A stretch of 64,000 nt of DNA from a virus, in IMG/VR virus record IMGVR_UViG_3300032069_000007, positions 16,288 to 80,287 of that record; one strand, written 5' to 3'. A program made the position numbers and the translations under genes. The notes under the pieces were generated by a model, which had not been told where the DNA came from, made no database searches, and saw only the letters and a list, made by a program, of their open reading frames with translations. This document shows positions 13,988 to 51,898 of the stretch, in pieces. Every line of letters begins with the position of its first letter. Within the stretch, counting starts at the first letter, position 1.

Positions 13988-14146
13988 ATGGCTGAAGCCG
14001 TTCCCGAACCCGCATTGTGGGCAGCCAAGCCGCAGCCTGACCGCAACGTCGGCGACGGGTGGCCTGCTTGGGACATTGAGTGCGATCGCTGGCGCGACCC
14101 AGAACGACCAAGGGAGCAAAGATGGCGCCGACCGAAACCGCAGTAA
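13988..14146 (+). CDS. Small hypothetical protein (52 aa)
   Basis: AGGAGGG SD and ATG; fills the gap between genes; below the ORF-track cut-off. Confidence 0.35.
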   Translation: MAEAVPEPALWAAKPQPDRNVGDGWPAWDIECDRWRDPERPREQRWRRPKPQ

Positions 14147-17100
14147 AGCCCGTTCTGGATTTGCACGACCTCGAGAAGTCGAGGGTGAGGGCGTACACCC
14201 GGCGTGGATCGAGTGGTCAGCCAGTTCAGGTTGCCGAGTATCAGACGAAGGTCCAGAAGAGACCGCAAGCCCCCGGCGGGCCGCGTCTCACGGTCGCGCG
14301 TCAGCCAGCAACTCGCTCTGCCAGAAGCCGGTTAGCCTCTGCCTCGTCGATGCGCTTCCCATCGCGCAGAAGGTCGGCGTACAGGACGTCAGCACGCACC
14401 CAGTCCGCATCCCAGGGTGAGCGGCGCTCCACGGCATCCAAGGAGGTCTTGCCTTCGTCCTCCGACTCGACCCAGGAACGGCAGACGGTGTCGCCGTCCA
14501 AAACCCAGTATGTTAGTTCGCGGTCTGGCACTGTCCGGTCCACCCCCAAGGTCATTATACCACGAACAGCAGCGGCAACGACATCGGCGGCGCTCAGCCG
14601 CAGAATATCCAACCTCGAGAGCACCGGCAACGGTCACGAGGTCGCAAAGTATGCGGCGGCGATCGCGGCTCACCTCAAGGACGCACCGACGCCCTTCAAG
14701 GGAACGTGGGAGGACAAGCGACAGCCGACAGGCGACATCCCGGACCTACTGCAGCTTGCAGAGAGTGCCAAGCCGAACTTTGAAGCGAGTCTGGGGAGGA
14801 TCGCTGATCGGCACGGCGGGGCTAGTGCCTGCCGCATCAAGCAGGAACAAACGCTCAGGACGCGGATGCGCGACAAGGGCCGGCCCGCTGATACCGTGAC
14901 GGACATTCTCGGCGGCCGGATCATCACCGATGACCCTGCGCACATCGCTCCCGTTCTTCGAGAGTTGCGAGAACTCTATCCCGTAGTAGAGGATGAAGAT
15001 AAGTTCGCCCACCCTACGTCCTTTGGCTACTGCGCCCGGCACGTGCTGGTCAAACTGCCGAGCGGCCTTACGGCCGAAGTCCAGGTCAACCTCCGAGAAT
15101 CCATCGAAATCCAGGATGTCGTCAGCCACCCGATCTACGAGGAGCTTCGCGCACCGAAGCGCAGGACCGTCGAAGAGCGCCAGGCGTTGCTCGCGAAGGT
15201 GGACGAGATACGGGGCCGGTACGCCGAGGTTCTGCGCAAGGCGACTGCGGCTCTCGGATTGGTGGTCAAGTCGCTCGTTGTTCGGTCCGTTGCGGCCTTC
15301 CAGGAGGCGAAGCACCCGCGAGTGCCACAAGGGCAGCGGGATGCCGAGGGTCGAACCGGCGGCGAGTTCGCGCCCAACCGCACCGGCAGATATACGCGGA
15401 AGGTCGTGACGCCGCGCGGCAACGTCGTCTACGTGTACCCGAAGCGCGTGGCCCAGGCCCGGCAGTCGGCCAAGTTTCGAGGGATGCAGAAGTTGGCGGG
15501 AAAACTGCCGACAATCCGCACTGCCCTCTCGCAGGATATCCGGCGCAGGGACCTCGAGGAGCGAAGAGTCTGCGCCGTTGCAGTCGCACTGATAGACAGC
15601 CTGCACTTCCGGGTCGGCACAGAGGGGGCCGAGACCGCCGGCGAGCCGACGTACGGCGTGACGACGCTTTTGGGTGACCACGTGCGCAACACGGACGCCA
15701 AGATCATCTTCCAGTTCCGCGGCAAGAAAGGGGTCCAATGGTCGCGGGAACTCCACAAGCCCGATGACCCGGATCTGGCGAGCGCCGTGGAGCAGATCTT
15801 GAGCGGCGTCGGACCGGACGAGCGCGTTTTCCGCTTTCGGGGCGCGCGCGGTCTCGAGCCTCTGACCGGGTATCGTGTTGAGAAGTACCTCAAGAGGTGG
15901 AACACGACGCCGAAGGCGTTCAGGACATTGCACGGGTCATACCTGGCGCACAGTGCGCTGTCACAATTTGTCAGCCAGCACCGCGGTCAGCGGCAGTCCA
16001 GGAAGCAGGTGAAAGCAGATATTCGCGAGGTCTGTAGCTATGTTTCCGCGGAACTGGGGAACACGCCCGCGATCGCGAAGCGGAGCTACATAATGCCGGA
16101 GATCATCCGAAGCTACATTGAGTCCGAGGGCACAAGGGTCGAGCCAGACCTCAAAATGGGGAAATCATTGGACGTCTGCCAGCTCTGGATTTTGGCAAAC
16201 GAGCACGGTCAGGTCCGCGGGTTCCTCCACAATGCGACGGAGCACGTCGAGCGGTTCGCGGACCAGCTCGCAAAGGCCCGAGTGGAGAAGTCCGACCAGG
16301 AGGTCGAGAAGTCACAGTTGGGGCTGCCGTACCATCTCGAAGGCGGGGTTGGCTCGGCGCACAGGGGGGCCAAGAAGCGGCTCGGCAGGCGCGCGCTGAT
16401 AGTCCGGACAGGCCGACAGCCAAAAGCGGCAGGCGATCCCGACCTGTCGCGGAAGATCAAGCGCATTGTCGGAGTCGTTGATACCCGCCAATACGAGGAG
16501 ATCGGCGACACGTGGAAGCCCATCGCCGGTAGTGGGACAGTGAACCAATGTGCGCGCTGCGGGAAGGACCATGAGGTTCATGCGACGGTCGAGCTTCAGG
16601 ACGGCACGCACGCCGTAGTCGGCACGAGCTGCATGAAGGCCGACAACATGGAGATGGCGCTGCGCTTCGAGAAGCTCGACCGGGCGGCCAGGCGGCTGCG
16701 GCAGCTCGAAGCCGAAAAAGCAAAGTACGATAGGGAAGTGCAGCAGTACCAGGGGGCGCTCGCGGAGGTCAGGGCGATGCCGAAGCCTCCGATCGAGGTC
16801 GTTATTGCTGAGGACCACCCTTGGTCACGGTACGAGTACAGAATGGGCGAAGCTAGGTGCTGGGGCGAGAAGCCCGATGATCCAGAGCGGCGCATGTGCG
16901 TAACATCGAACTGGGAGACGAAAGAGCTCGTGAAGCGCGGGATCCCGCACGGGCGGCGTCCTTACCCACTCCACGAATTTGACAGGGAAATCGCCAAGGT
17001 GAAAAGGCGGATCGAGGCGGTCAAGGCAGAGTCGGAAGTCGAGAAGTCCTCTCTCTCGCGCGCGCGCAAGATAGTCACGGAGATGTACGAAAATCTTTCA

Positions 17101-20790: not shown

Positions 20791-21129
20791 ATGTTGATGC
20801 TTATGCTAAGCAAGGAAGAGCGGTCTGCCCTGATGCGGCAAGTAACCGAGCGGATGCGGACCGTCGTCAAGGACTATCGCCGGACGCACAACATCACTCA
20901 AGCTCGACTTGCACGCCAACTTGATTGTGGGAGTCCCGCCGTGATTGGCAACTACGAGAACGGCAAAACTATTCCCCATTTCTTCACGCTGACCCAACTG
21001 TTTCTGGTGTGCGTACAGAATGCCCCGGAAGATGTCCTCGACATGATGAGGCGTCTGGGTTTGCCGGTCGACGAGGCCCTAGTAGAGATCCGATCGGGAA
21101 GGGGGGTCCCCGAATGCCAGCGTGGTTGA
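20791..21129 (+). CDS. XRE-family HTH transcriptional regulator
   Basis: YRRTHNITQARLARQL..SPAVIGNYENGKTIP. Confidence 0.85.
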   Translation: MLMLMLSKEERSALMRQVTERMRTVVKDYRRTHNITQARLARQLDCGSPAVIGNYENGKTIPHFFTLTQLFLVCVQNAPEDVLDMMRRLGLPVDEALVEIRSGRGVPECQRG

Positions 21130-24062
21130 GAGCGGAAGACGAAGATAAGTGGGATAAGGCGAAGGCGGCGGCAAAGGAGTCCTATCCGGACATGAAGGAA
21201 GACGATGACCGCTACTGGGCTATCGTCACATCCATATTCAAGAAGATCGGAGGCAAGGCCGGAAAGAAGTCGCTTGCCGCGCCGACGATGGTGGTCGCCG
21301 TCGGGGGGTATGATCCGCTGTTCAAGTCCGAGCGGCCATCGGTTACCGAACAGGGCGATAAGTTGTACATCCGCACCCCGTACCACACTGGCTTCATAGG
21401 CGACATCAGGGACATTCCCGGTCGGAGATGGGATCCGGACCGCAAGGTCTGGATCGTCGGCAAGGAGCACAGAGAACGGGTCGACGGCATCATAGGCAAG
21501 CATTTCCGGGAAGAGGAGCACCCGCGCGCTCCTGCTGGCCTGCCCGAAGGTGGCCAATTTGTACCCAAGGAGGGCATTGGGGCCAAGGGCCAACAACAAG
21601 CACAACCGTCGGGGGGCACGGTCGAGGGGGCGAAGGAGCCACCCACGCAGAAACAACTGGACTATATGGGCAAGTTGGTTGCGGAGCTAAGACAGGATTT
21701 GACCGATCGGCGGTTTAGTCCGCCGACGTACAATCACGGCCCGTTGCCGTTTGAGAAGCAAGCAATCCTCAATCTAAGCGATGCCTTAGAGGCGCGGCAA
21801 CCTTCCCAGAGGCTTATCGAATACATCGACCGCCGATTAGCCAGCAGTCTCTTGGAGGCTATCGAATCTATGCACGACATGCCAAGGCGGCAAGCCTCCC
21901 TCGTGATCGACGCACTCCGCAGTGGTTCCCTCCGCCAACTCGCCCAAGCGGTTGCGAACACACCGGGTTATTCGGAGGAGGCGTTTGAGGGCGCTAAGCG
22001 ACGGCTCGACGCTCGCAGCGTCGACATCGTGAAGGAACTGGCCCAAGAACTCGGGGTTACGTTGACTCCGAGTGATGCTCAGCCCAGTAAGTCCTTGCGC
22101 CTCGTGCTCAAGGGGCAGTTATTCGGAACGGGCGTCCCGACCATCTACATAGTCCGCCACGGCAAGACCCACATGAACGGGGAGGGTGAACAGCCGGATC
22201 TCGTCCGCGGCTGGCTCGACCCACCGCTCGACGAAAAGGGCAAAGATGAGGCGAATAGGCTCGCAAAGGTCTTCGATTCAGTCCCGCTCACCAAGGTGTA
22301 CACTTCCGATCTCAAACGATCAGAGGAGACCGCCAAGGTAATAGCTGCCGAGACGTCTGCGCCCATAGAGGTCTCTAGGGCCTTCCGGCCCTGGAACCTT
22401 GGCCGTCTTCAGGGATCCAGCTCCAGGCAGTCCACGCCCACCATCCGAAAGTTCGCAGGACAGAATCCCACTACTCCCGTGCCAGATGGCGAGTCCTTCG
22501 AGGACTTCAAACACCGTTTCTTGGATGGCCTCAAGGGGCTAATGGACGATCTGGAGTCCGGGAAACCGCGCAGCGTCGTTATCGTGACCCACTATCGCAA
22601 CCTGAAGCTCGCACACGCCTGGGCCGCCGATGGCGGCAAGGCCGAGAAGGTCGACGTGAAGACTTTCCTCGCTGACGATATGCCGACCGGATATATCGGC
22701 AAGCTAACCTACGAAGGCGGCAAGTGGCATTTCGGAGCTGCGGAGGCGCAGATAGACGGAGCGATGCCCGAGGCCAAGAAATCTGTTTGCGGAACATTGG
22801 TAGTCGTTCTTCCTTCCAAGCGTGCGCCGGGTCCTCGGTTGGTGCTGAAGGGCCACAAGTTGCACTACCAGACGGACTTCCAGGGGATCTCCGTGTCCGT
22901 TGAGAATCGCAAGGGCAGCATCCGCCGGGGCAAGCAGAAAGGTGGCAAGGAGTGGGAAATGAAGATGTTCTACCTGTACGGCCGGATCCCGTACACCAAG
23001 GGCAAGGACGGCGAGGCCGTTGACTGCTTCATCGGCCCAAACAAGGAAAGCCAGAAGGTCTTCGTTATTCACCAGCGGACGCCAGACGGCAAGCACTATG
23101 ATGAGGACAAGTGCATGCTCGGGTTTGACGATGAGGAGCACGCCCGCGACGCTTTTCTGGCGCACTACGACTCACAGAAGTTCCTCGGCGAGATCACGGA
23201 GATGGGCATTGACAAGTTCAAGGAGAAGCTCAGTGAGACCCGCGAGTCCCCTAAGATGATAAAGAGTTTGCCGCAGCAGATCATCGTCCAGAAGTGGCGC
23301 AAGATAAAAGTCAAGGATGGCTTGACCATTCGAGTCCCTGGGGGGCCGCCAGTGGCGCCCAAGGGCAAATGCTATAAGCTAGTCATCGCTGAGGGCGCGG
23401 CGATTCAATGCTTCGCCCGGAAGGCTGATGCGGCGCGAGCGGCCAGGAAGATGAACGGCCAGGACCTGTGCGGCTTCTCATACGTGGACATCCCGACGTA
23501 CCCGGACGGCAGAAAGGTTCGGGTCCACAAAGCGTGGCCGGAAGGGTCCCGTGTAGGAAGTTCCAAGGATGTCCACCGGGCCCTAAAGGAGATGGGGCAC
23601 GAGGTCATCACTGGCAAGGGCGGGTTTCACATCAGGGGCAAGGGTTTTGTCTCGCTCGCCCAAGCGCGCAGGATGACCGGGATAAAGGCACCCAAGCGGA
23701 ACTTTCGCGGGAGGATCGGGCCGTACGGGGATCTGGCCTGGGTAGCGGCGATCAACAGGGTCCGGGTCGGCAAGGCGCTGGATAACCCAATTCCCGTTGT
23801 GTTGGTCGAGAAAAGCGACAAGACTGAGGGCATGACGATCCGCATAAAGCACCTTACGCCGGAACAGAAGGAGCGCATCGCGAACTTGATGGGTCCCTGG
23901 CAGTGGATGGGCCACGTTGGGACATCGCGGCCAACGGTGTTCTTCGCCGATGGGGACCGCGACTTTGGTCCGCAGGTCGAGGTAGACGGAGCACGGGTTG
24001 GAGGATTAACCCCAGATCTCGGCAAGCAGTACGAGGCGCACAAGGGCGTATTCGAGGTTTAG
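21114..24062 (+). CDS. Polyvalent protein: HARP-like + histidine phosphatase + inorganic pyrophosphatase-like domains
   Basis: ATG 21114; IPGRRWDPDRKVW (HARP-like); IYIVRHGKT..TSDLKRS..GES..VTH (His phosphatase); VENRKGS..YGRI..KDGEAVDCFIG..DEDKCMLGF (phage PPase-like). Confidence 0.8.
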   Translation: MPAWLRAEDEDKWDKAKAAAKESYPDMKEDDDRYWAIVTSIFKKIGGKAGKKSLAAPTMVVAVGGYDPLFKSERPSVTEQGDKLYIRTPYHTGFIGDIRDIPGRRWDPDRKVWIVGKEHRERVDGIIGKHFREEEHPRAPAGLPEGGQFVPKEGIGAKGQQQAQPSGGTVEGAKEPPTQKQLDYMGKLVAELRQDLTDRRFSPPTYNHGPLPFEKQAILNLSDALEARQPSQRLIEYIDRRLASSLLEAIESMHDMPRRQASLVIDALRSGSLRQLAQAVANTPGYSEEAFEGAKRRLDARSVDIVKELAQELGVTLTPSDAQPSKSLRLVLKGQLFGTGVPTIYIVRHGKTHMNGEGEQPDLVRGWLDPPLDEKGKDEANRLAKVFDSVPLTKVYTSDLKRSEETAKVIAAETSAPIEVSRAFRPWNLGRLQGSSSRQSTPTIRKFAGQNPTTPVPDGESFEDFKHRFLDGLKGLMDDLESGKPRSVVIVTHYRNLKLAHAWAADGGKAEKVDVKTFLADDMPTGYIGKLTYEGGKWHFGAAEAQIDGAMPEAKKSVCGTLVVVLPSKRAPGPRLVLKGHKLHYQTDFQGISVSVENRKGSIRRGKQKGGKEWEMKMFYLYGRIPYTKGKDGEAVDCFIGPNKESQKVFVIHQRTPDGKHYDEDKCMLGFDDEEHARDAFLAHYDSQKFLGEITEMGIDKFKEKLSETRESPKMIKSLPQQIIVQKWRKIKVKDGLTIRVPGGPPVAPKGKCYKLVIAEGAAIQCFARKADAARAARKMNGQDLCGFSYVDIPTYPDGRKVRVHKAWPEGSRVGSSKDVHRALKEMGHEVITGKGGFHIRGKGFVSLAQARRMTGIKAPKRNFRGRIGPYGDLAWVAAINRVRVGKALDNPIPVVLVEKSDKTEGMTIRIKHLTPEQKERIANLMGPWQWMGHVGTSRPTVFFADGDRDFGPQVEVDGARVGGLTPDLGKQYEAHKGVFEV

Positions 24063-27260: not shown

Positions 27261-27541
27261 CTGTACAATATGACACTCCACCGGACATGATGCCGGAGAT
27301 CAACCGCCTTCTGGTGCTCGCCGTCGGGTCGGTGAGGAGGGCGCATTTCGCGCAGGTGTTCCGGGCCGAGGTCGGGCCGCTGTTCGAGGGCCTGTCGAGC
27401 CTCCGGTACGACCAGATCGAGGAAGCGTTCCTGGACCAGATGGAGGCGGCATTCGACCTAGCTGGCAGTGTGCGGGATGCCTTTCAACTTAGAGATCGAT
27501 TGACAGCGGAGAGTGACCCACAAGATGGCAACCGTGGTTAA
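27257..27541 (+). CDS. Hypothetical protein
   Basis: Start overlaps the upstream stop; helical composition. Confidence 0.55.
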   Translation: MTVQYDTPPDMMPEINRLLVLAVGSVRRAHFAQVFRAEVGPLFEGLSSLRYDQIEEAFLDQMEAAFDLAGSVRDAFQLRDRLTAESDPQDGNRG

Positions 27542-30500
27542 GGTCTTAGGCAGGCAGGGCAACCGGCTCAACATCGCGCGCCGGGAGTGCTCCTGCGAGG
27601 TCAAGTTGCCGTTTGGCCTGCGCTTCACCGACGGCGGCAAGATGCACCGGGTCCACGTCTGCCCGCAGTGCGAGCGCCTCCACGGGTACGAGGACATCCG
27701 TAAGGGAACCCTGCTGCGCAGTCAAGTCGTCTTCGCCCCCGGGTTGCCGCTCTTATCGAAGGCACTCGAGCTCAAGGCCGGCCAGCGCTGGGTAACGCTG
27801 CATCCGGATGCCGAGAACCCAGAAAACTACGTCCACGTCCTGATCCAAGAGCACCCCGATGGCACAGCAAGCGTCATTCGGGGAGCTGAGGGCAAGCTCA
27901 ACTACCTGCGGCTGACAAAACTCAAATCGCCGGAGGACTGGCAGGAATCCGGAAAGCGCCTTGCCGAGGAGCGCGAGAGGCGGCGGAAAGAGCGTGAGGC
28001 CGCGATGACCGAAGAGGAGCGCCAGACCACGCACGACGTAGAAGCTGGCATACTGGCCCGCAAGGAGCTGGAGGACGCCAAGTACGTATCGCAGGTGATG
28101 GAGGCGCACGGGATAGGCGAGTCCGACTGGAAGCTCGAAGAAAAGACCTTGGTAGCCCTGCCGGGGAAGTCACGCGAGATGGCCGAGAAGCAGCACCTCC
28201 GCAAGATGGTCACGGTGGCGAACAAGCTCGTGGACCGCACGCGCAAGGATCTGCTGGACGCTCACGACCGATTGGCCGAAGCCGAGCTCGGCGATATGCC
28301 GCTCGGGGACGTAGGTATCGAGCGGCCACTCGAGGGCAAAGGAAGCGGGTATATCGCCGCAGTCGAGAACGCGGCAGAGGCGGCTGGTCTAAGCGTCAGG
28401 CAGAAGATCGCGGAGAAGGAGGACATAAGCTGGAGAGGGTTCCTTGACCGAAGCGACGGCGATCCTCTCAAGGCTGCCGAGAAGCTCGCAGCGGTCCAGC
28501 GCCTGCACGCAGCGCTCCGCGAGGTTCGTGAACCGATCAAGGAGCTCAGAACCGCCGGCCTATTGGATAGGCCGCTGAAACCGGAACTTCCGCCAACCGA
28601 GAAGATCGCTGACATCCTCGTGGCGCAGAAGCAGCACACCGACTACGAGCGGCAGTACCGACAGGTGAAGGGTGAGATAGAGGAACACGGGGTTCCCAAG
28701 GCCGCTCTTGAGGTCGTGACGGAACTCAGGCCGGAGGAGGTCGAGGAGATCATCAGGGCCGCTGCCGCAAAGCCCTTAGACGAGGAAGCCGCCAAGGACA
28801 AGGTCGCCGAGGAACTGGCCGAGGATGCGATGCAGCGTGCGGCCGAGAGGCTGCTTGCGACCGCCGACAAGGAGGAGGCCCTTCAGCCACTCCGCAAATA
28901 CGTGACGATGGGGCATTACGACAGTTTGAACCGCTCCTGCCTCGCGGCAACGCGCACCCCCCTGCCCCTCGGCCGTCTTCAGGCCGACATCCTGGGACCA
29001 GAGGCCAGTGCCCAGGTGCTCGCCGCCCATCTCAGAGAAACGCTCTCGGACACGGATTACAGGGCAGCACTCCACGGCGTTGCCAACTACCATCGCAACT
29101 ATCAGCGGCAGGCAAGCGAACAGGCCCTCCAGTCGTACGCGTCGACAAAGCAGCAGGCCGACGAACTCTCCGAGCGCCCGATATCCGACATCGGGTCTCT
29201 TGTTGAGGCACAGGTTGCGAATGCCGACCGGATTGACCTCGTTGACGAGGCGCGGGAGACTCTCGGCGTGGCGCTCGGACGGCTGGAAGCTACGGCTGCG
29301 CTTGTCCAAGCGCTTGAGCTTCAACACGCACGCAAGGGAGTGCCGGAAGAGCTGCGGGTTCCGCTCGGTGCTATCTCAAATCAGCAGGCCATTGCGCAAG
29401 CGCGCGTGCTGGGACTCAGCCACCCTGTCATGGAGGAGATGGAGCCGGGGGTGGAACCCGATTACCGAATCGACTCCGACGGCGTCAACAAGTTCCTGAC
29501 TATCTTGCCGAACGGGGCAGCCAAGCTCGTGACGAAGCCCGATCGGGAGCTCGCAGAGAAGCACGCACTCGCAACCGAGATCAAATCAGGTAGGCGGGAT
29601 CAGAGGCACTGGCTCCCCGCAGGAATTGTCTCGAGGCCGCAGAGCACATTCGAGGATCCCGAGAAGCGCGCGGTGCAGTTCTCGGAACCGCTCGAACTCA
29701 GGCCCAAAATGCGGTATGCGGAGGTCAACCGCGGACTCAAGCACTATATCGCGCGGCGTCTAGCGGACGGCCAGGACCCTGAGAGCCTGCGTTCCGACCT
29801 GCTTTCGGCAGAGTTCACCGCGGACCTGCCGGACGATCTTCTGGGAGACGGCGGCGGATCCTACTACAAGGCCCTAAGCGACCTCGGCTGGTTCACCTAC
29901 AACCAGGTAGAAAACAAGTCCCCGGAGGGGCTGGAGGCCATAGCCGAACACGCAGTTGAGGAGTACGAACGCGAACACGGGGCGTCTGAGGAGGTCGCCG
30001 CCCTCAACTCGCAGTCCATCCCACTGAAAGACAGCCCGGTGTGCTACGAGGCTCTCTACAGGGCCGTTGCGGCTCACCCCGAAGCCAGGGTAGCGTTCAA
30101 GGCTCTCTCCGAGCTGACGCCGGAGGAGCGCGGGCTGATCCAGCGCTTCTTCTACCGGGTCATGACCGAGGAGAAGTCGCCCCAGGAAGAGGCTGAGGAG
30201 AAGAGGCTTACCGCAAGACCGACCCAGGCCCCGGCTAGGCAGGAGGCGCTGTGGGCCGAGCAAGAGGTGCCCGCAGAGACGACGGAGGCCCGGAAACCCG
30301 CCAAGCCAGGACGCGAGACCCCGTGGACCCGCTACGTCAAGGCGCAGGGATCTGTCCAACATGCCTATGAGAGTGTCCAGGACGTCATGAGAGGCGCCGT
30401 CTCGGCGCAGTTCGCCAAGCACATGGGAGGCATACTTGGCCGCGAGCTGAAGACCGGCAACAAGCGCATCGCAAACTGGGATGACCACCTTCTCGGGCTC

Positions 30501-33500
30501 GTTTCTCCAGAACGACAACAGCAGCTCCTGGAGGCGCGGCAGGCAGAAATGGCGCGCAAGCACGCGAGGGTCGCGACTCGCGCCCGGGGCAAGTTCGCAA
30601 CGGAGGAGCGGCTCGGCATCAGGCGTGAACGCGCGGAGGCCCTCGATCGGGCCATCCGTGGAGCTGCGCTCTCGCTGTTCAAGGAGAAGCCGCTGCCCGC
30701 GATCGAGCGGGTTACGATCGGCGCCCGGGCGGAGAAACAGCTCCAGTCCATCTTCCCCTACGTTGCCCAGAACTTTGAGGTTGACCGGCCGGTAGACATC
30801 CCTCACGATGTAAATATGAGCGAAGGTGAGATGGTAAAGCAGCAGCGCGCGGTGAAGCTGATCGAGGGCCTGAAGCGGCTTTCGCTCAACCTGGGCGTCG
30901 GCACCGGCAAGACCCTGGTCGCGTTGGGCAGCTTCTCAGACCTGCAAGCACGCGGCGCAGTCAACCGCGCCATCTTCGCTGTGCCAGCCAGCCTTACGGC
31001 GCAGTTCGGGTGCGTTCGGGGCGACACGGAACTCTGTGACCCTATCCGCGGACTCACCATGACATTTGAGGAGTGGCTGCTTTCGGGCCTGAGGCCCTTT
31101 GTCTGGACCCGGGCCGCGGGTGGACAAGTAACCATCGAACTGGCGTCTCGCCCATTCCTGAAGGGCCTTGATCGGATGTATCGCGTGGAGACGGACGATG
31201 GAGCGTCAATTGTTGTGACCGCAAAGCATCGCTTCCTTACGCCGAAGGGTTGGAGGCCGTTGTGCGAGTTGCCCGTCGGCTCGCTTGTTTCTTGCGCCGT
31301 CGCTCTGAAGCGTGCAACAAGCGATGCTCACGGTGGCTCCCGAGCAACTGGAGATTATCGATCCGGTTGTCATCCTTTTGGCCATTACGGTGATGAACGA
31401 GCTCATCCGGCTCCAGATAACGGCCAACGTGCTTTTCCATTATCAGGCGGTGCTCGAGATAGTAACCCAGTGAATTTGCCTGAGGGTGGTCCGGCACAAA
31501 CAACGCGATGTAGCCAGCAGAACGCCGAATCCGACCTCCCTTCCAGTTGTTTGCCTTTTCGCCCTTGTGACGGTTGGCATTGCCGAGTCTTGGAACGTCG
31601 AGCTTCTTCAGGCGAAGCCGAACCGCATCCTCGCTTGCGCCGTTATCCAAAATGCGGGCTATCTCCGAACACGACCGCCCCTGCTCAGCCAACTCTCGCA
31701 ACCGCTCGTCGCTCCACTCGTACCCAGGTGGCCTGCGCCCGTTCAGGCGGAGTTTCCGCATTCGACGAAGGACGGTCGCTTGTGTTGTCCCAAAGTAACG
31801 AGCCAGCCAAGATAGCGATCTCCCTTCTTGAACGAAGCGGCGGAGGTCGTTCTCATCTATGGAATGAGGTCGACGACCAGTGCGCAGAGCCTCGGAAAGC
31901 CCAAGAGCCCTCACCCGACGAGCCAAGTAGCTCTGACTCCTCCCGGTCTGCCGTGACATCCAAATGCAGGTTCGATCCTCGGCAACCCAATCCCGCAGTT
32001 GCTGATCCGGGACGGCGGCGTATTCTGGGAGACTTGGCGGAGTCAGTCCCAATTCAAGCAAGCGCCGCCGAAGCGTGTGCCGTGCAAGGCCGAATTGGCG
32101 CTCCATCCAAGCCAGCGACCTTCCCTGGCTGTGGTAGCGCCTCAATGCCGTTTCATCAACCTGTTTCGTCGGTTGGCTCATGCACCCAGTATAGCACAAT
32201 TCGCAACATCTCGGAAGTGGGGCTTGCCCTTGTCTTCGACATCGCAGTTGCACGGACACACAACTACTGGGCTGGCGGGTTCTGGAATCACAATTCGGAA
32301 GCCTTGAGGTTCTACGAACCTGGCAGGTTCAAATGGTTCGCCGACCCGACGGCCAGCGCTGAGGACCGCCGGGCCGCCTATACTGATCCCGATCGGCAGA
32401 TATGCGTTGTCACCCATCAGGCCCTCAGAGACGACCTCGTCTGGGCGGTGGGCCAGGATCGGTTCGGGGGCAATGTACGAAAAGCGGAAGACTGGATGCG
32501 TGCGGCTCCCGAGGACGAACGCAGGCACGAGGTACGTGCGGCAGCGGAGAAACAAGGGTGGAAGTGGGACATGTGTTTGCCGTACGAGGCTCCGGTGGCG
32601 ATGGCGGACGGAACAACTCGCAGGATCGGAGATCTCGTGGAATCCCGATCAAGCGATCCCGTGCTGTCACTCAACCTTCAGAGCGGTAGGTTGGAGGCCA
32701 AGTCAGTGTCCGATTGGTTGCGCTTGGAGTGCCCGCACCCCCAACTCTACCGAATCCTCGCGGGCGAAGCAAGCGTGATATGCACAGGTGATCATAAGAT
32801 ATGGACACTCGGTAGGGGGTATGTCCGCGCTTGCGAGGTGCGAGTAGGTGACCGACTTTTGGCTTTACAACCGACCGACTCTCTGCTAGAATTGGAACAC
32901 GATACCTTGAACCGGGGTGACAGAAATGGCAGTGAGGGATATGTTGGTCGGAACGCTTCTGGGCGATGCCTCGATGGGCCAGAGCGCTGCCGGGACGCCG
33001 CGAGTAACGATCAAGCACTGTCCCGCGCAAGAGGATTATCTATTCCACAAGTACGATCGACTGAGATCAATATGCCCATCTGCGCCGAAGTTCGTCAGGA
33101 ACGGGGGATGGGGCGGCGACCTCTGGGTCTTTCAGACGAGCTGCCTGGATTGGTTGCGGCAGTACCGGGAGATGATGTGGCGCGACGGGAGGCGTCGGAT
33201 TGCCGACGCCGTGAAGGATCACTTGACCCCGGAGGCACTGGGTTACTGGTATATGGACGACGGTTCGCTGTCGAACGGGTGTGCCACACTCAGCACACAC
33301 AGGTATTTGCGGGAAGATCAACGGAAGCTGCGATCTTGGATCCGCCAACTGTACGAGATCGAGGTTCTGGAACGCTACGACCGAAGGCACGACCGGTTTT
33401 ATATGGCGATGCGCAGAGAGGCGACGCGCCGGTTTGTGGCACTTCTGAGTCCCCACGTGCCGGAGTCCATGAGATACAAGCTGAATGTGCCGAATGCGGA

Positions 33501-35084
33501 GTTGCTGCCGTACATAGCGCCAACCCCGGAGGCCCTGCCGGGACGACTGTGCGTGATCTGCGGTCAGCGGTATGCCTTTCAGCAGGTCTGCGACTCTCCG
33601 GAATGCAAGCAGACCAAGAGGGACTGCGACAACCGGCGTTGGTACGACGCGCACGCTGCCGAGATCTCGGCGAGAACTCACGAGGAGCATCTGCGGAATC
33701 TCGGAGAGGGAACGTGCGAGGTGTGCAAGAGTCAATTCCTCCGCACCAGTCGCCTCCATGTACGCACGTGCTCGGCGGCATGTCGAGCGGAGTGGAAACG
33801 CCGTCGGGCCCTGGCATGGTACTACCAGAACTGCGATGCCATGAAGCACCAGTAACCTCAGTCGAGTTCACAGATGCGCCTGCGTTTGTCTATGACATAA
33901 CGGTGGAGGAGAACCACAACTTCTTCGGCTACGGCCTCCTCGTCTCCAACTGTCTTGTTGATGAGGGTCAGGATATTCTCCGCCGGCTTCATAAAGCCGA
34001 CAGCCTGATGCAGCACGCCATCGACGCTCTGTCATATCACACTCCCTATTACATCTATTCCACGGCCGACCCCGTCAAGAACGACTGGTCGGAAGTCCAC
34101 GACGTTTTGGCAAAGGTAGCACCCGACCGTTATCCCGCCGCCAGCCGGGAGGAGTTCCACCGCCGTTACGGAATCGACTGCCTCCAGACTCAGCAGGCGC
34201 TCAGACAGGAAATGCACCCATTCGCCTATGCCGAGCGTATTCCTCTGGGCATCGTGGCAAGCAGGAGGCAGGAGCCAGTGCAGCTCTCTGCCCCAGAGCA
34301 ATCCGAGTACGACGGTGTCCTCCAGGCATATCGAACCGCGCAGACGGCACGGCGCGCCGGAAAGGTAGACGATGCCGTCCCCGCGTTGCGGCAGATGAAC
34401 CCCCGTGCCTTCGAGGGCAAAAACGAAGCCGAACAGCGGACAGAGGCGGGGAGGATGTTGCAGTTCCTCTCGGCCGCCAGAGACTCCGCGCTGGACCGAA
34501 TCGTCAACGCAGGTTCGGTGCGCGGGGCAGGCGTGCGCATACCGGCCAAACTTGAAACATTGCACGCGTTCGTGCAGTCACGAATAGCAGAGAAGGGCGC
34601 TGGCCTCGTCTTCGCGCACTCGATAGAGGCGCAGAACCAGATCGCGGGATACCTCAAGAGCAAGGGGATCAAGGTGGGCACCCTCTCAGGGTCTGACCCC
34701 GGGGCGAAACGCGAGCGCACGCGCCAGGACTTTCAGGCCGGCAAGTTTGACGTCCTCTGCCTCAGCGATGCTGGATCGACGGGGCTCAACTTGCAGAGGG
34801 CCGCATTTTGCTGTAACTTCGACTCGCCGTATACGGCGAAGACCTACGAGCAGCGGATCGGCCGCATGGAGCGGCTGGGCCAGACCAACCCTGATATGAA
34901 GGTTCTGGATCTGGTTACGACCACTCCCTACGAGCGCGGCCGGAGGCGACTCCTGGAGCGCAAGGGGAAGCTGCGGGAGGCGCTGACCGCGCCTTACGAA
35001 ATGCTTGATGACACCGATTTGGGGAGAGAAATCGCTGAGGCGCGAAGCAGTGAGATCGAGAAGGCAGTACTTAAAGCCGCTTAG
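27513..35084 (+). CDS. Giant SNF2-family helicase protein containing two inteins
   Basis: LGVGTGKT (Walker A); AVPASL..QFG|SE (motif Ia, split by intein 1); M|CLVDEG (Walker B, intein 2); [22 protein letters not shown]; start may be ATG 27525. Confidence 0.9.
31237..32181 (-). CDS. HNH homing endonuclease with 4 HTH repeats, antisense inside intein 1
   Basis: [35 protein letters not shown]; NWKGGR; four LRxxxxxGRS-like HTH units; ATG 32181. Confidence 0.9.
32188..32216 (-). promoter_or_regulatory. Extended -10 promoter for the nested HNH gene (leaderless)
   Basis: TGc-TATACT (32196-32188), 6 nt, then ATG; weak -35 TTCCGA at 17 nt. Confidence 0.7.
32864..32892 (+). promoter_or_regulatory. 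sigma70-type promoter inside intein 2
   Basis: TTTACA (32864-32869), 17 nt, TGc-TAGAAT (32884-32892); SD GGGGTGA at 32914-32920. Confidence 0.75.
32926..33855 (+). CDS. LAGLIDADG homing endonuclease + Zn ribbons, in the +1 frame inside intein 2
   Basis: [11 protein letters not shown] and [11 protein letters not shown] (two-motif LAGLIDADG); CVICG, CDSPEC, CEVCK, CSAAC. Confidence 0.9.
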   Translation: MAVRDMLVGTLLGDASMGQSAAGTPRVTIKHCPAQEDYLFHKYDRLRSICPSAPKFVRNGGWGGDLWVFQTSCLDWLRQYREMMWRDGRRRIADAVKDHLTPEALGYWYMDDGSLSNGCATLSTHRYLREDQRKLRSWIRQLYEIEVLERYDRRHDRFYMAMRREATRRFVALLSPHVPESMRYKLNVPNAELLPYIAPTPEALPGRLCVICGQRYAFQQVCDSPECKQTKRDCDNRRWYDAHAAEISARTHEEHLRNLGEGTCEVCKSQFLRTSRLHVRTCSAACRAEWKRRRALAWYYQNCDAMKHQ

Positions 35085-42268: not shown

Positions 42269-43836
42269 TGCCGACGTATTACCTCTCGGACACTGACATA
42301 ACCGCGCTGACCCTGGAGCAGTTGGCGACTTCGGCCCCTTCGGCGTTAGATGAGGCTCAGGGTTGGACGGTCGATAAGAAAGTAGCCCTTGCATCAGCCT
42401 ATAAGCCGGACACGATCCGGGCAGCAACTACCTTTGTTACGGAGCCTACCGCGTTCAGTGCGCTTGGCTACAGGACAGTCGCGGTGCTCTCCGGCAACTT
42501 CGCCGCTGGGAATTGGGTTCTGTCCTGGAGGGTCAAGTCTAATGCCTACTACGCGCAGAAGGGGTATGTCAAGTTCCGGCTGTGGCGGAGTACGAACGCC
42601 GATGGATCGGGCGCCACACAGATAACGCCGGGCTGGCAGAGCTCGATCGAGATCGGGTTCACGGCTGCCGGCCAATATCAGACCGGCACCGTTACCTGGG
42701 CTAGCGGTTCAACCGTAACCCTGACCAACGAGTATCTTTTCCTTGAGGTTGAATGGTATGCCACGGTCTCCGGCGGAAACAACGCGGCGGCTGTCTACTG
42801 GGTCCACAACGAGGGAGCGGCGGAGCAACTTGTCACTCCGGCCCTGGGACAGAGTTACAGCCGCTCGGCCTCGGCGGGGATAGGGGTAGTTGCTGTTGCC
42901 ACACGGCAGGTGGCTTATGGACGTGCGGCAAGCGCTTCAGTCAGCTCCGCGGCTTCGTCGGGGAGAGGTGCCGTTCTGGCAAGATCGGGGGGCGCATCCC
43001 TCTCAGTCGCTGCTGCAGCGAACAGGGTTCTTGGCAAAGTGAGATCAGCGGCGGCGGGGATTGGTGTGGTAGCAACGGCGGTGAGGGCAGTTGCTTTCGG
43101 GAGAAGTGGATCGGCGGGGATAGGGGTCTCACCTTCGGCAGCCAGGGCTTTTAGCGGCTTTCGGTCGGCATCAGCAAGTGTAAGTGTGGCCGGAACTGCA
43201 TCAAGAACGTTCTCAGGAATTAGGCTGGCTACGGCCTCGATGTCCGTAGCGGCGTCAGCGGCCAGAATCTACGGCGCACTGAGAGAAGCCGCAGCCTCCA
43301 TTTCCGTTGACGCGATTGCGGAGGCTATCAAGAGCGGCGGGCAGGCATTCTTCAGGACAGCAGAGGCCGCCATATCGGTGATTGCAACCGCCACAAGGCA
43401 GGTCAGTCTGAACAGGTCGGGGGCGGCCTTGGTCTCAGTCGGTGCGGGGGCAGATAGGATTATCGGCAGGATCAGATGGGCGGCGGCCAACATTAGTGTG
43501 GCAGGGTCGGCAGCGAAGGTGGTCAGCTTCGGGAGGACCGGTTCGGCGGCTGTAGGCGTCTCGGCATTAGGGACAAGAGCCGTCGGCGCAGTTCGTTCGG
43601 CGTCGGCGAGTGTGAATGTGGCCGGAATCGCAGCACGAGTATTTGCCGGCAGGAGGCCCGCAGCAGCCAGTGTTGCTGTCTCGGCGTCGGCATCACGAGC
43701 GTTCTCGGCATTCAGGCGGGCGGCAGCAACAATCCTTGTGGGTGCTGTGGCCTTGGCCTACAAGGGCGGAGGCGGAGTTGGCAAACACCTCCACATGGGC
43801 CTAGACAAACTACGGAAGGTATTTGGAGGGATATGA
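42268..43836 (+). CDS. Fibre-like virion protein with about 15 x 20-aa repeats
   Basis: RSASAGIGVVAVATRQVAYG-type repeats after a globular N-terminal domain. Confidence 0.75.
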   Translation: MPTYYLSDTDITALTLEQLATSAPSALDEAQGWTVDKKVALASAYKPDTIRAATTFVTEPTAFSALGYRTVAVLSGNFAAGNWVLSWRVKSNAYYAQKGYVKFRLWRSTNADGSGATQITPGWQSSIEIGFTAAGQYQTGTVTWASGSTVTLTNEYLFLEVEWYATVSGGNNAAAVYWVHNEGAAEQLVTPALGQSYSRSASAGIGVVAVATRQVAYGRAASASVSSAASSGRGAVLARSGGASLSVAAAANRVLGKVRSAAAGIGVVATAVRAVAFGRSGSAGIGVSPSAARAFSGFRSASASVSVAGTASRTFSGIRLATASMSVAASAARIYGALREAAASISVDAIAEAIKSGGQAFFRTAEAAISVIATATRQVSLNRSGAALVSVGAGADRIIGRIRWAAANISVAGSAAKVVSFGRTGSAAVGVSALGTRAVGAVRSASASVNVAGIAARVFAGRRPAAASVAVSASASRAFSAFRRAAATILVGAVALAYKGGGGVGKHLHMGLDKLRKVFGGI

Positions 43837-50512: not shown

Positions 50513-50711
50513 CCCTGACCGGGTAACGCTATCCGTCCAGCTGTGGCTCTTCTGGCATAGGTTTGGGGGGATCCCGGGCGATCTCTGGGATTACCCCAGA
50601 TACATCGTCGAGGAGTTTTTCGCCTTTGATGAGGCGATGGGCGACGCGTCGTCGGGACCGAAAGAGGTTCCGACAACGGAGGAGGCCAAGAGCGCGAATA
50701 GTCTGTCCTAG
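50466..50711 (+). CDS. Chaperone extension (GT-like) in the +1 frame
   Basis: LWLFWHRFGGIPGDLWDYPRYIVEEF after GAT TTT CTT C; no convincing start of its own. Confidence 0.55.
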   Translation, partial: FFALLAYDLTRGQVTNPDRVTLSVQLWLFWHRFGGIPGDLWDYPRYIVEEFFAFDEAMGDASSGPKEVPTTEEAKSANSLS

Positions 50712-51829
50712 CTGAGTGCGCTAGGTCTTGTCTCTGGCACCTTCGGGGCGGGTGCTCCGAAGTCCGAGACGTTTGGCCGGACTATTAAGGCGGCCCGGCG
50801 GATATTCTCCGCCGCGATGACATCTGCGGCCCCAGCGAGGCCGCAAGACGTGCAAAGGAAAAGACCTTGAGCCTTACGATTTCTTCTATCGATATGCCCA
50901 CAAAGAGGGCACGTGATGCTGGTGTTCCCACGGTCCACGATGACCACGGGGACTCCGACCAAGCGCGCCTTGTAGTCGATAAAGGTTTTGAGTTGCAAGA
51001 AGCTCCAGGAAGAGAACGTGTCCCGCTGGTGGCGCCTAACTGTCGTCAGAGAGCGGCGCTTGAGGTCCTCAAGCGCGATACCTCTTTTCGTGTCTTCGGC
51101 CTTGGATACTATCTTCTTGGAGATGCAGTGGTTGACATGCCTTGCGAATCGGCTCTCGTGCCTGCGGCGCTCCCGAAGGAGCCTGCGGCAGGAGAGGGTG
51201 CCTTTGCTCTGGAGTTTAGCCCTGAGCCTCCGGTGCCGTTTTCTGAGGCCGTTGACGAGCGCGCCCGAGAACATCTCGCCGTCGGAGTCCGCGGCGATCT
51301 GCTTGATGCCGAGGTCCACGCCGAGAACATCGACCGGCTCGATCGGATCGGGTTCGGGTACGTCGCAGGCGGCCAGAAGGTAGAAACAACCGTCGATCAG
51401 CGCGAGGTCGGACTCCCCGGCGCGGTACTTGAGAAGCTCGCGGTCACGGGGTCCGCAGACGAAGCGGAGGAACACCCGCCCTTCGACAGTCGATATCGAA
51501 ACCAGCCTCTTGTGGGTCAGCCAAGTCAGGCTGAGATTGTCATAGGGGATGGACCCGTGGCTCCGGAAGTTGCATTTGTGTGTGCGCCCTTTGCCGTACG
51601 CGTCGGCGACTTTCGCTATACATCGCACGGCGATGCGGGAGGGCAGTGCGAACCCCTGGCGGATGGGGCGGTAGGCTAGTCTGTGTATGGGGAATCGGCG
51701 GAATGTCTGAGCGTTCCAGGCCAGCTCGCTCGCCCAATTACAGGCGTCGTTGGCCCGCTCCAGCGTGCGTTTCAGGGCCTCGGCCTGTGCCGGGTCCGCG
51801 AGCAATTTGACCCTGGCGGTAAGCGTCAT
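50708..51829 (-). mobile_element. tnpB: IS200/IS605-family TnpB RNA-guided nuclease, no TnpA nearby
   Basis: RuvC-I LGVDLG, RuvC-II IALEDL, CPLCG..CTSCG Zn finger, RuvC-III ADVIAAENI; ATG 51829. Confidence 0.93.
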
Positions 51830-51838
51830 GGCAAGGAT

Positions 51839-51867
51839 ATTGTAGCACTCGCCGCAACCCAAGGCAA
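51839..51867 (-). promoter_or_regulatory. sigma70-type promoter of tnpB
   Basis: TTGCCT (51867-51862), 17 nt, TGc-TACAAT (51847-51839), 9 nt, ATG. Confidence 0.7.
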
Positions 51868-51898
51868 GCATTTTGTTTGCAATTAGGAGGGCCTGACC

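Follow-up and report, generated by a model that had tools for sequence, protein, structure and literature searches.

An antisense gene in the reading frame of a phage polyvalent protein, and its probable role as inhibitor of the RelA/SpoT-like domain

Results

The locus and its antisense gene

The window analysed here is the whole stretch of 64 kb taken from the 80,287-base virus record IMGVR_UViG_3300032069_000007 of IMG/VR; it has 61% G+C, and its genes lie almost all on the plus strand. Downstream of genes for a gpA-type terminase and a portal protein, and followed by several very large multi-enzyme open reading frames (ORFs), the window contains an ORF for a phage polyvalent (cargo) protein, one of whose domains is RelA/SpoT-like. 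On the opposite strand, inside this host ORF and ahead of the RelA/SpoT-like domain, lies a frame of 76 codons, which is probably a gene for an inhibitor of that domain and which is the subject of this analysis. The host ORF deserves the name polyvalent, in that several unrelated enzyme domains are joined in one polypeptide encoded among the virion head genes, and RelA/SpoT is among the domains listed for polyvalent proteins in PMC5512222. The DNA of the locus occurs in sediment metagenome DNA assemblies only, and a search for RNA runs that contain it listed none. The features are collected in Table 1.

The original prediction, made from the letters of the window, had described a minus-strand promoter box, a GGGGGTG element, a GTG start and an acidic, Trp-containing product of 76 residues, and all of these are borne out by sequence and translation. 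The product has a mass of 8.75 kDa and a pI of 4.4, with 19 Asp or Glu and 4 Trp residues and with neither His nor Gln. Its C-terminus, previously given as IDEAEANRLL, reads ...NRLLAERVAG. The GGGGGTG element is kept in relatives, though the spacer that follows it varies. The 64 kb hold a single TGNTATAAT, with 0.27 expected, and this one is located directly upstream of the antisense start. Since it occurs only once, the earlier suggestion that the same promoter type serves further nested genes of this genome cannot be taken literally. The box TGGTATAAT imposes the minor Ile codons ATT-ATA on the plus strand, and this pair is absent from the 23 other Ile-Ile pairs (0/23). A generic scan for promoters and terminators gave no prediction at the antisense locus, and the GC-rich hairpin just past the antisense stop is no better than shuffled sequence, so that a terminator at this place is without statistical support.

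When the same DNA is read in the plus frame, the segment that covers the antisense gene and its promoter has the character of a filler: 22 of its 87 residues are Ser (25%) and 14 are Arg (16%), the pI is 12, and the segment ends in VIIP; a Ser/Arg-rich filler with this ending had been described before. A reading of the filler as an intein, by analogy with other nested genes of the genome, was dropped, since the plus frame is without visible Cys/Ser...His-Asn intein ends.

Table 1. Features of the locus, in coordinates of the window
Feature	Position	Strand	Basis and remarks
Antisense gene, 76 codons, for a probable inhibitor/immunity protein of the RelA/SpoT-like domain	14301..14531 (GTG 14531-14529, TGA 14303-14301)	-	Sequence and translation
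Extended -10 promoter box TGGTATAAT	14554..14562	-	Identical in L002, L004 and L005; putative promoter
Shine-Dalgarno-like GGGGGTG	14541..14547	-	9 nt 5' of the GTG; candidate site
Ser/Arg/Thr-rich filler of the host ORF over antisense gene and promoter	14302..14562	+	Composition; no plus-frame constraint
GC-rich hairpin just past the antisense stop, possible terminator	14259..14289	-	Fold; z-score 0.13, no U-run
RelA/SpoT-like pyrophosphokinase domain, Pfam core	14833..15138	+	PF04607, 35.4 bits against a cut-off of 27
Host ORF, phage polyvalent (cargo) protein of about 2100 amino acids	14122..20424	+	Pfam RelA_SpoT, Topoisom_I (topoisomerase IB) and ResIII/DEAD helicase domains

Relatives of the locus

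Three related contigs were available for comparison, L002 from IMG/VR and L004 and L005 from metagenomes of the Joint Genome Institute, with 85-87% identity over the wider region and about 90-92% across the locus. In all three, the minus ORF, the promoter box, the ribosome site and the GTG start are intact. A search for further loci turned up these three only, and contigs from four sediment runs brought no new variant (X4 is an L004-type sequence). A tblastn search with both proteins gave no match in 50,697 phage records, nor did a blastn search with the region give one.

An exhaustive HMMER search with the 76-residue protein, carried out over 1.8 billion representatives, gave one true distant homologue, P0005 (115 amino acids, E 1.2e-19, 58% identity), with a sibling, P0009, from a Logan assembly; P0005 is encoded on a JGI contig of 4353 nt and P0009 on a Logan contig of 4320 nt. 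Two other matches, P0004 and P0010, stem from gene calling within the same close lineage, P0010 being the antisense gene as it was called on a related contig. The matches P0006, P0007 and P0008 were rejected as tandem-repeat or TPR artefacts.

The minus ORF is intact in the P0005 lineage as well, with a Val aligned to the position of the GTG start. When the residues of P0005 are decoded to the other strand, two features appear in the plus frame: the residues IIP, which correspond to the TATAAT box, and the motif T-x-N-G-x-x-x-A-K-x-A, which the RelA/SpoT module of the window has at its start. From these correspondences we infer that the same nesting is present in a lineage that has diverged by about 40%.

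When L005 is compared with the window, the two align up to position 16256 and again from 17057, with about 440 nt in L005 in place of about 800 nt in the window; this gap is a domain-scale replacement or indel within the giant ORF.

Codon usage and selection in the two frames

An open antisense frame proves nothing by itself, because such frames are common in the window: in its 45 kb of coding DNA there are 46 antisense open runs of at least 76 codons in the same register, i.e., the register in which the wobble positions of both strands coincide. Furthermore, and this too speaks against a gene, a sense frame rich in Ser, Arg, Thr and Ala automatically yields, by the structure of the genetic code, a protein-like antisense frame rich in Asp, Glu, Leu, Val and Ala. 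For both of these reasons, evidence that separates the two frames was sought.

The first such evidence comes from codon usage. With a model trained on the remaining plus-strand genes, the difference between the sense and antisense log-odds per codon was calculated in 1354 sliding windows. Over positions 14290-14531 this difference is -0.19 to -0.23, which is the lowest among the 1354 windows (mean +0.40, standard deviation 0.15), and the windows over 14230-14531 (-0.07 to -0.23) are the sole place where the antisense frame clearly outscores the sense frame. A marginal dip, to -0.04, occurs in one window near 31533. In a six-frame scan, the minus frame is the best one over 14251-14662.

The second kind of evidence comes from substitutions. 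Each possible change was classed by its effect in both frames in a count of the OLGenie type, and the window was compared in this way with L002, L004 and L005. In the overlap there are 23 substitution events. Changes that are non-synonymous in both frames have a rate dNN of 0.036, those that are non-synonymous in the plus frame and silent in the minus frame a rate dNS of 0.349, those that are silent in the plus frame and non-synonymous in the minus frame a rate dSN of 0.10, and those that are silent in both a rate dSS of 0.27. Changes that alter the minus-strand protein are thus depleted (dNN/dNS 0.10, Fisher p 0.0006), while changes that alter the plus-strand protein only accumulate at the silent rate (dNS/dSS 1.29, not significant). 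The RelA/SpoT region at 14641-15470 is the mirror of the overlap in this respect: there the ratios come to 0.23 (printed p 0.0000) and 0.36 (p 0.0005) in the plus frame, and to 0.73 and 1.16 in the minus frame, where neither is significant. Two of the five changes at first positions of minus-strand codons are silent changes between the Leu codons CTG and TTG, which appear in the plus frame as Arg/Lys swaps. Divergence at non-wobble positions is smaller in the filler (6 of 154 sites) than in the catalytic domain (19 of 267 sites).

These ratios must be read with the caveat, unfavourable to the gene, that the 23 events essentially belong to one deep branch. In addition, when the window was compared with the P0005 protein alone, the quality of substitutions by BLOSUM (-0.30 against -0.33) did not discriminate between the frames. 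Three features of the locus nevertheless go beyond chance, namely the outlying codon usage, the frame-specific selection and the location of a unique -10 box immediately ahead of the start, and on the strength of this comparison of sequences the minus ORF is, with high confidence, a real protein-coding gene under purifying selection at the protein level.

Elsewhere in the window, sustained minus-strand coding signals were seen only at 42931-43762 (three ORFs of 62-74 amino acids) and at 50708-51940 (410 amino acids). Within the ORF at 27513-35084, the six-frame codon scan prefers a frame other than that of the host at 31261-31912 (minus strand) and at 32911-33742 (second plus frame), and long alternative frames are open there, one of 363 antisense codons at 31240-32328 and one, on the plus strand, for 312 amino acids at 32917-33855. 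These frames agree with inteins whose endonucleases are encoded antisense or in the +1 frame, as had been noted for this genome.

Translation of the host frame across the antisense gene

The start of the host ORF is marked by a strong ribosome site, AAGGGAG at 14110-14116, and by the ATG at 14122, both of which are conserved. At this ATG the pattern of divergence from L002 changes: upstream it is about 25% and without phase bias, and downstream it falls to about 12%, where 14 of 18 changes affect wobble positions. Over 14125-14300, i.e., between the start codon and the overlap, the plus frame is under selection (dNS/dSS 0, p 0.013), and L002, L004 and L005 share a deletion of 27 nt at 14148-14176, in the N-terminal segment of the cargo protein, which leaves the frame intact. 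From there on, the plus frame is without stop until 20424 in all four sequences, and no in-frame ATG, GTG or TTG was found from 14531 up to the place where the RelA/SpoT fold begins. It follows that ribosomes which start at 14122 must read through the DNA of the antisense gene. The earlier claim that the antisense gene is nested in the large ORF is in this way upheld, by the selection on the minus frame, the conserved signals, the homologue with 58% identity and the plus frame that is open in four sequences of four.

To keep the plus frame open costs little, since this takes no more than a purine-ending codon before each of the small gene's two Tyr codons; in one of the two places it is the minor Thr codon ACA. 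A plausible origin of the arrangement is the fusion of two plus-strand genes across a gene on the opposite strand. A word-index search that used the first 400 residues of the cargo protein returned the genome's own gene call only.

The segment that follows the 27-nt deletion (..RVRAYTR..VQVAEYQTKV) is conserved and resembles a basic beta-hairpin motif, and a loosely similar segment (..RYTRKVV..VVYVYPKR) occurs at the end of the RelA/SpoT module, near 15385-15450. Such segments may be module boundaries or signals for packaging or processing.

The RelA/SpoT-like domain

The RelA/SpoT module was modelled as 14563-15450, or 296 residues, and the end of the antisense gene is found about 260 nt upstream of this module, within the same ORF. 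The distance to the RelA/SpoT domain had been put at about 300 nt; the domain does lie close by, and its Pfam match begins about 270 nt from the promoter. When the module is aligned with RelSeq (1vj7), the equivalents of R241, K243, D264, R269, Y308, H312, E323 and Q325 are found to be kept. Since the catalytic Asp and Glu and most of the substrate-binding residues are retained, the domain is probably active, as far as can be judged from its residues.

The next large ORF, at 20925-24062, has His_Phos_1 and inorganic-pyrophosphatase (InPase) domains and encodes another polyvalent cargo protein that acts on phosphorylated nucleotides or pyrophosphate. It could bear on the chemistry of the RelA/SpoT-like domain.

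Predicted fold of the small protein and its complex with the module

When the 76-residue protein was modelled by AlphaFold 2 (AF2) from a four-row alignment, the result was a compact fold, with a three-stranded meander and two helices, and with a predicted local distance difference test (pLDDT) of 79.9 and a predicted template modelling (TM) score of 0.66 in the best model. Among 48,161 chains of the PDB, the best match to this model is 6ox6_B, which is Tis1, an immunity protein of 76 residues that counters the RelA/SpoT-like type VI toxin Tas1. The match is weak, with a Z of 5.6 and a root-mean-square deviation (rmsd) of 4.9 A over 65 of the 76 residues and 20% identity. The probability that the top chain would by chance be one of the handful of inhibitors of RelA/SpoT toxins is of the order of 1 in 10,000, and the idea of an antitoxin preceded the searches. 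Among look-alikes found by language-model features, Tis1_ImmP is the only Pfam family shown (score 0.83, which is to be taken as a lead only). A comparison of a profile with PDB sequences gave weak matches that resembled a Kelch-repeat motif and were judged spurious.

In the Big Fantastic Virus Database (BFVD), the best viral matches to the fold are two small unnamed viral proteins, A0A977KMG2 (73 amino acids) and A0A516KX65 (92 amino acids), with TM scores of 0.71 and 0.62, rmsd values of 2.6-2.7 A and E values of 0.02-0.04.

A complex of the small protein with the RelA/SpoT module was then predicted. In three runs its score was 0.76, 0.76 and 0.78, while the best control reached 0.08. A result at this mark was obtained for 58 of 80 solved complexes and for 2 of 110 mismatched pairs. 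The pLDDT of the partner in the complex is 83-84, and at least 63% of the contacts are common to the runs. On the side of the enzyme, the predicted interface consists of module residues 104-108, 150-156 and 188-206. According to the RelSeq alignment, the first of these is a loop that follows the phosphate-binding helix and immediately precedes the catalytic Asp, the second is the loop HPTSFGY, equivalent to RelSeq 302-308, which is the acceptor-nucleotide site, and the third is the helix after the catalytic Glu. On the side of the small protein, residues 47-60 belong to the predicted interface. The small protein is thus predicted to sit on the catalytic cleft of the RelA/SpoT-like domain.

Discussion

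Inhibitor or protein of other function

The models described above make it probable that the antisense product is an inhibitor of the adjacent RelA/SpoT-like domain, and the original proposal that the antitoxin of this domain is encoded within the domain's own ORF receives computational support from the modelled binding to the cleft and from the weak match to Tis1. Several observations weigh against this reading. Neither the 76-residue protein nor P0005 has a match among the models of Pfam, PHROG, NCBIfam and PADLOC. The Tis1_ImmP profile (PF24154), when searched in six frames against the whole phage record, had no match at E <= 10, and none of the four family members, when compared with Pfam, matches Tis1_ImmP. 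The five AF2 models span pLDDT values from 42 to 80, three of them being poor and two confident, and AF2 from the single sequence was uninformative (pLDDT 52.8). A Z of 5.6 with an rmsd of 4.9 A is within the noise level stated for the structural scan; a second structural look at the PDB gave nothing with Z >= 5, and Foldseek against the PDB nothing at E <= 0.001. The complex score may reflect a memory of the solved Tas1-Tis1 complex, and the alignments behind it have 3-4 rows only, a depth that the calibration of the score did not cover.

The enzyme itself also departs from the known toxins. The synthetases of (p)ppApp that act as toxins (Tas1/Apk1 and Apk2) have the signatures GxN in syn3, RYT in syn2 and YH in syn4 (PMC12226406). 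At the places of these signatures the domain studied here has ..GGR, ..ARH and ..VN, so that syn2 and syn3 (..R, ..H) are closer to the type of the RelA/SpoT homologues (RSH) than to GxN and RYT, and syn4 fits neither type. No sequence match of the domain to Tas1 (6ox6_A) was found, and its matches to solved (p)ppGpp synthetases are weak.

Given these reservations, the alternative that retains most weight, though it is unlikely, is that the antisense gene is real and has another function, as a moron expressed in lysogeny, a regulator, an anti-defence protein or an assembly factor, and that its position beside the RelA/SpoT-like domain is incidental. In this case it would be natural that no sequence family could be assigned to the protein, that its likeness to Tis1 is below the usual level of significance, and that the viral proteins closest to it in structure are small phage proteins without a name; the genome, moreover, tolerates further nested genes unrelated to toxins. 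What such a function would leave unexplained is that the complex score is far above the controls, with the small protein modelled on the catalytic cleft, and that Tis1, a rare family, is indicated by two separate methods, i.e., structural alignment of the AF2 model and language-model features.

Nested or merely adjacent

A different question is whether the inhibitor gene, if real, is truly nested in a translated frame. The database gene call for the big protein, P0011, has 1978 amino acids, which implies an internal GTG start at 14488, and this start was apparently chosen to make room for the antisense gene. One may therefore consider the case that the RelA/SpoT protein starts internally, at this GTG or elsewhere, or that the N-terminal 60 codons form a separate product, in which case the open plus frame over 14301-14531 would be fortuitous. 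The lack of amino-acid constraint on the plus frame over the overlap is in line with this, as is the ease with which the frame would stay open, with only two purine-ending codons before Tyr codons and with such frames being common. However, the plus-frame selection, the indel of 27 nt that keeps the frame, and the conserved ribosome site and ATG show that translation starts at 14122, and beyond this point none of the four sequences has a stop before 20424, nor is there a canonical start codon in frame from 14531 to the RelA/SpoT fold. A start at 14488 would, furthermore, still leave an overlap of 44 nt with the antisense gene, and it would drop the constrained N-terminal 60 codons. A gene that is adjacent but not nested is for these reasons improbable. 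The complete picture, in which an inhibitor gene is truly nested antisense in a translated frame of the RelA/SpoT cargo protein, is favoured, but with less assurance than the inhibitor function or the reality of the gene taken alone.

That there is no functional antisense protein at all, the minus frame being the mirror image of a disordered Ser/Arg-rich linker and the box and the conservation being due to chance or to constraint on the nucleic acid, is very improbable, for although antisense ORFs of this length are common, the code converts Ser, Arg, Thr and Ala codons into protein-like codons on the other strand, P0004 and P0010 are only gene calls on the same close lineage and the quality of substitutions against P0005 did not tell the frames apart, the constraint is on the minus frame and not on the plus frame, with the reverse in the neighbouring control, the filler diverges less than the catalytic domain at non-wobble positions, the extended -10 box is unique and exactly upstream, and the protein is predicted to fold with a pLDDT of about 80-84.

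Comparison with known systems

It is a known principle that a small protein inhibitor is encoded beside an effector of the RelA/SpoT fold, as in Tas1-Tis1, in Apk2-IapK and in the antitoxins of toxic small alarmone synthetases (toxSAS). Domains of the Tis1 type neutralise their toxins by occluding the acceptor site (PMC11782079), and the MuF-Apk2 toxins of phages have an adjacent immunity gene for IapK, which neutralises in the same way as Tis1 (PMC12226406).

To take the closest example, consider Tas1-Tis1, where Tas1 is a (p)ppApp synthetase of the Pseudomonas aeruginosa type VI secretion system (T6SS; PDB 6OX6, PMC11782079). Here as there, an immunity protein of about 76 residues would face a pyrophosphokinase of the RelA/SpoT fold, the best, albeit weak, structural match of the model is Tis1 itself, and the predicted binding covers the loop of the acceptor site. 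The differences are that there is no similarity by sequence or profile, that the domain has syn motifs of the RSH type and no match to Tas1, that it would be delivered by a phage capsid protein rather than by a T6SS, and that the candidate immunity gene is antisense inside the ORF of the putative toxin, whereas Tis1 is encoded by a downstream gene.

The MuF-Apk2/IapK/Aph1 modules (PMC12226406; PMC5576092) share with the present locus a head-associated phage protein with a RelA/SpoT-like domain, here a putative toxin, and an adjacent cognate, or here candidate, immunity gene. There, a C-terminal toxin domain is followed by immunity genes in the same orientation, whereas here the domain is internal to a multi-enzyme protein of 2100 amino acids and the candidate immunity gene is upstream, on the other strand and within the ORF; a hydrolase of the Aph1 type was not identified here. 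The pZFD antitoxins of toxSAS (ATfaRel2, 73 amino acids; PMC11782079) are likewise small and compact beta/alpha proteins directed against a toxin of the RelA/SpoT fold, the binding being a predicted one in the present case. They block the ATP donor site of toxSAS that modify tRNA, and they are co-directional operon partners (PMC11782079). The 76-residue protein is without their YXXY motif, and no pZFD chain is among the structural matches listed, which does not prove that the likeness is absent.

Antisense overlapping genes of bacteria, such as those in P. aeruginosa and in Escherichia coli O157 (PMC8850804, PMC9927249), resemble the present gene in being embedded ORFs with signals of their own and under purifying selection. 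What sets the present case apart from them is that the embedded frame is constrained and the host frame an unconstrained passenger, and that the two products are predicted to act together as a pair. Polyvalent proteins of phages and conjugative elements, as described in PMC5512222, are multi-enzyme proteins encoded among head genes and may have a RelA/SpoT domain, like the host ORF; when that paper was searched by terms, no passage came up on an immunity or inhibitor gene, nested or otherwise, for their domains.

What differs from all of these is the architecture, in which a candidate immunity gene runs antisense within the ORF of its effector, behind a putative promoter of its own, and is constrained while the host frame drifts. 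A literature search found no published case of such an architecture.

A possible mechanism

According to the proposed mechanism, a host-type extended -10 promoter would drive the synthesis of the small acidic protein, with its beta sheet and helices, independently of the late structural operon. The protein would bind to the catalytic cleft of the RelA/SpoT-like domain, covering the acceptor-nucleotide loop HPTSFGY and neighbouring elements, in analogy with the action of Tis1 and IapK on Tas1 and Apk2. The enzyme would in this way be kept silent in the cell that produces phage, and perhaps also in lysogens exposed to sibling phage. If an alarmone synthetase were made without control late in infection, the production of phage would plausibly suffer, and an inhibitor expressed from a promoter of the host type would then make sense. 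The plus strand, for its part, would read the DNA of the antisense gene as an unconstrained Ser/Arg-rich linker. Since the DNA is shared and read through on the plus strand, toxin domain and antidote would be inherited as one block and the giant ORF would remain uninterrupted.

The position of the cassette just before the putative toxin domain, without sequence similarity to published pairs, would suggest either a mobile unit of toxin domain plus antisense immunity or a repeated fusion of flanking genes across an immunity gene on the opposite strand. As a wider and more tentative generalisation, which is about as likely as not, polyvalent toxins loaded into capsids may solve their problem of immunity by an antidote gene written backwards into a linker of the toxin ORF, so that dual-strand coding would be a regular design that standard annotation has missed.

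Implications

If confirmed, the locus would fit a toxin and its immunity gene into the same stretch of DNA by the use of both strands, and the toxin domain, though internal to a giant virion protein, would keep a private antidote without a break in its ORF. It would also be an unusually clean case of an antisense gene in a bacterial virus that is under selection at the protein level while the annotated frame drifts. Nesting of this kind explains gene calls that are truncated or started at the wrong place, such as the database start at 14488, and the frame-resolved test of selection is a simple way to find further cases. For the biology of alarmones, the finding would add a RelA/SpoT-type enzyme delivered by a phage, together with a candidate new family of inhibitors, a family with almost no relatives.

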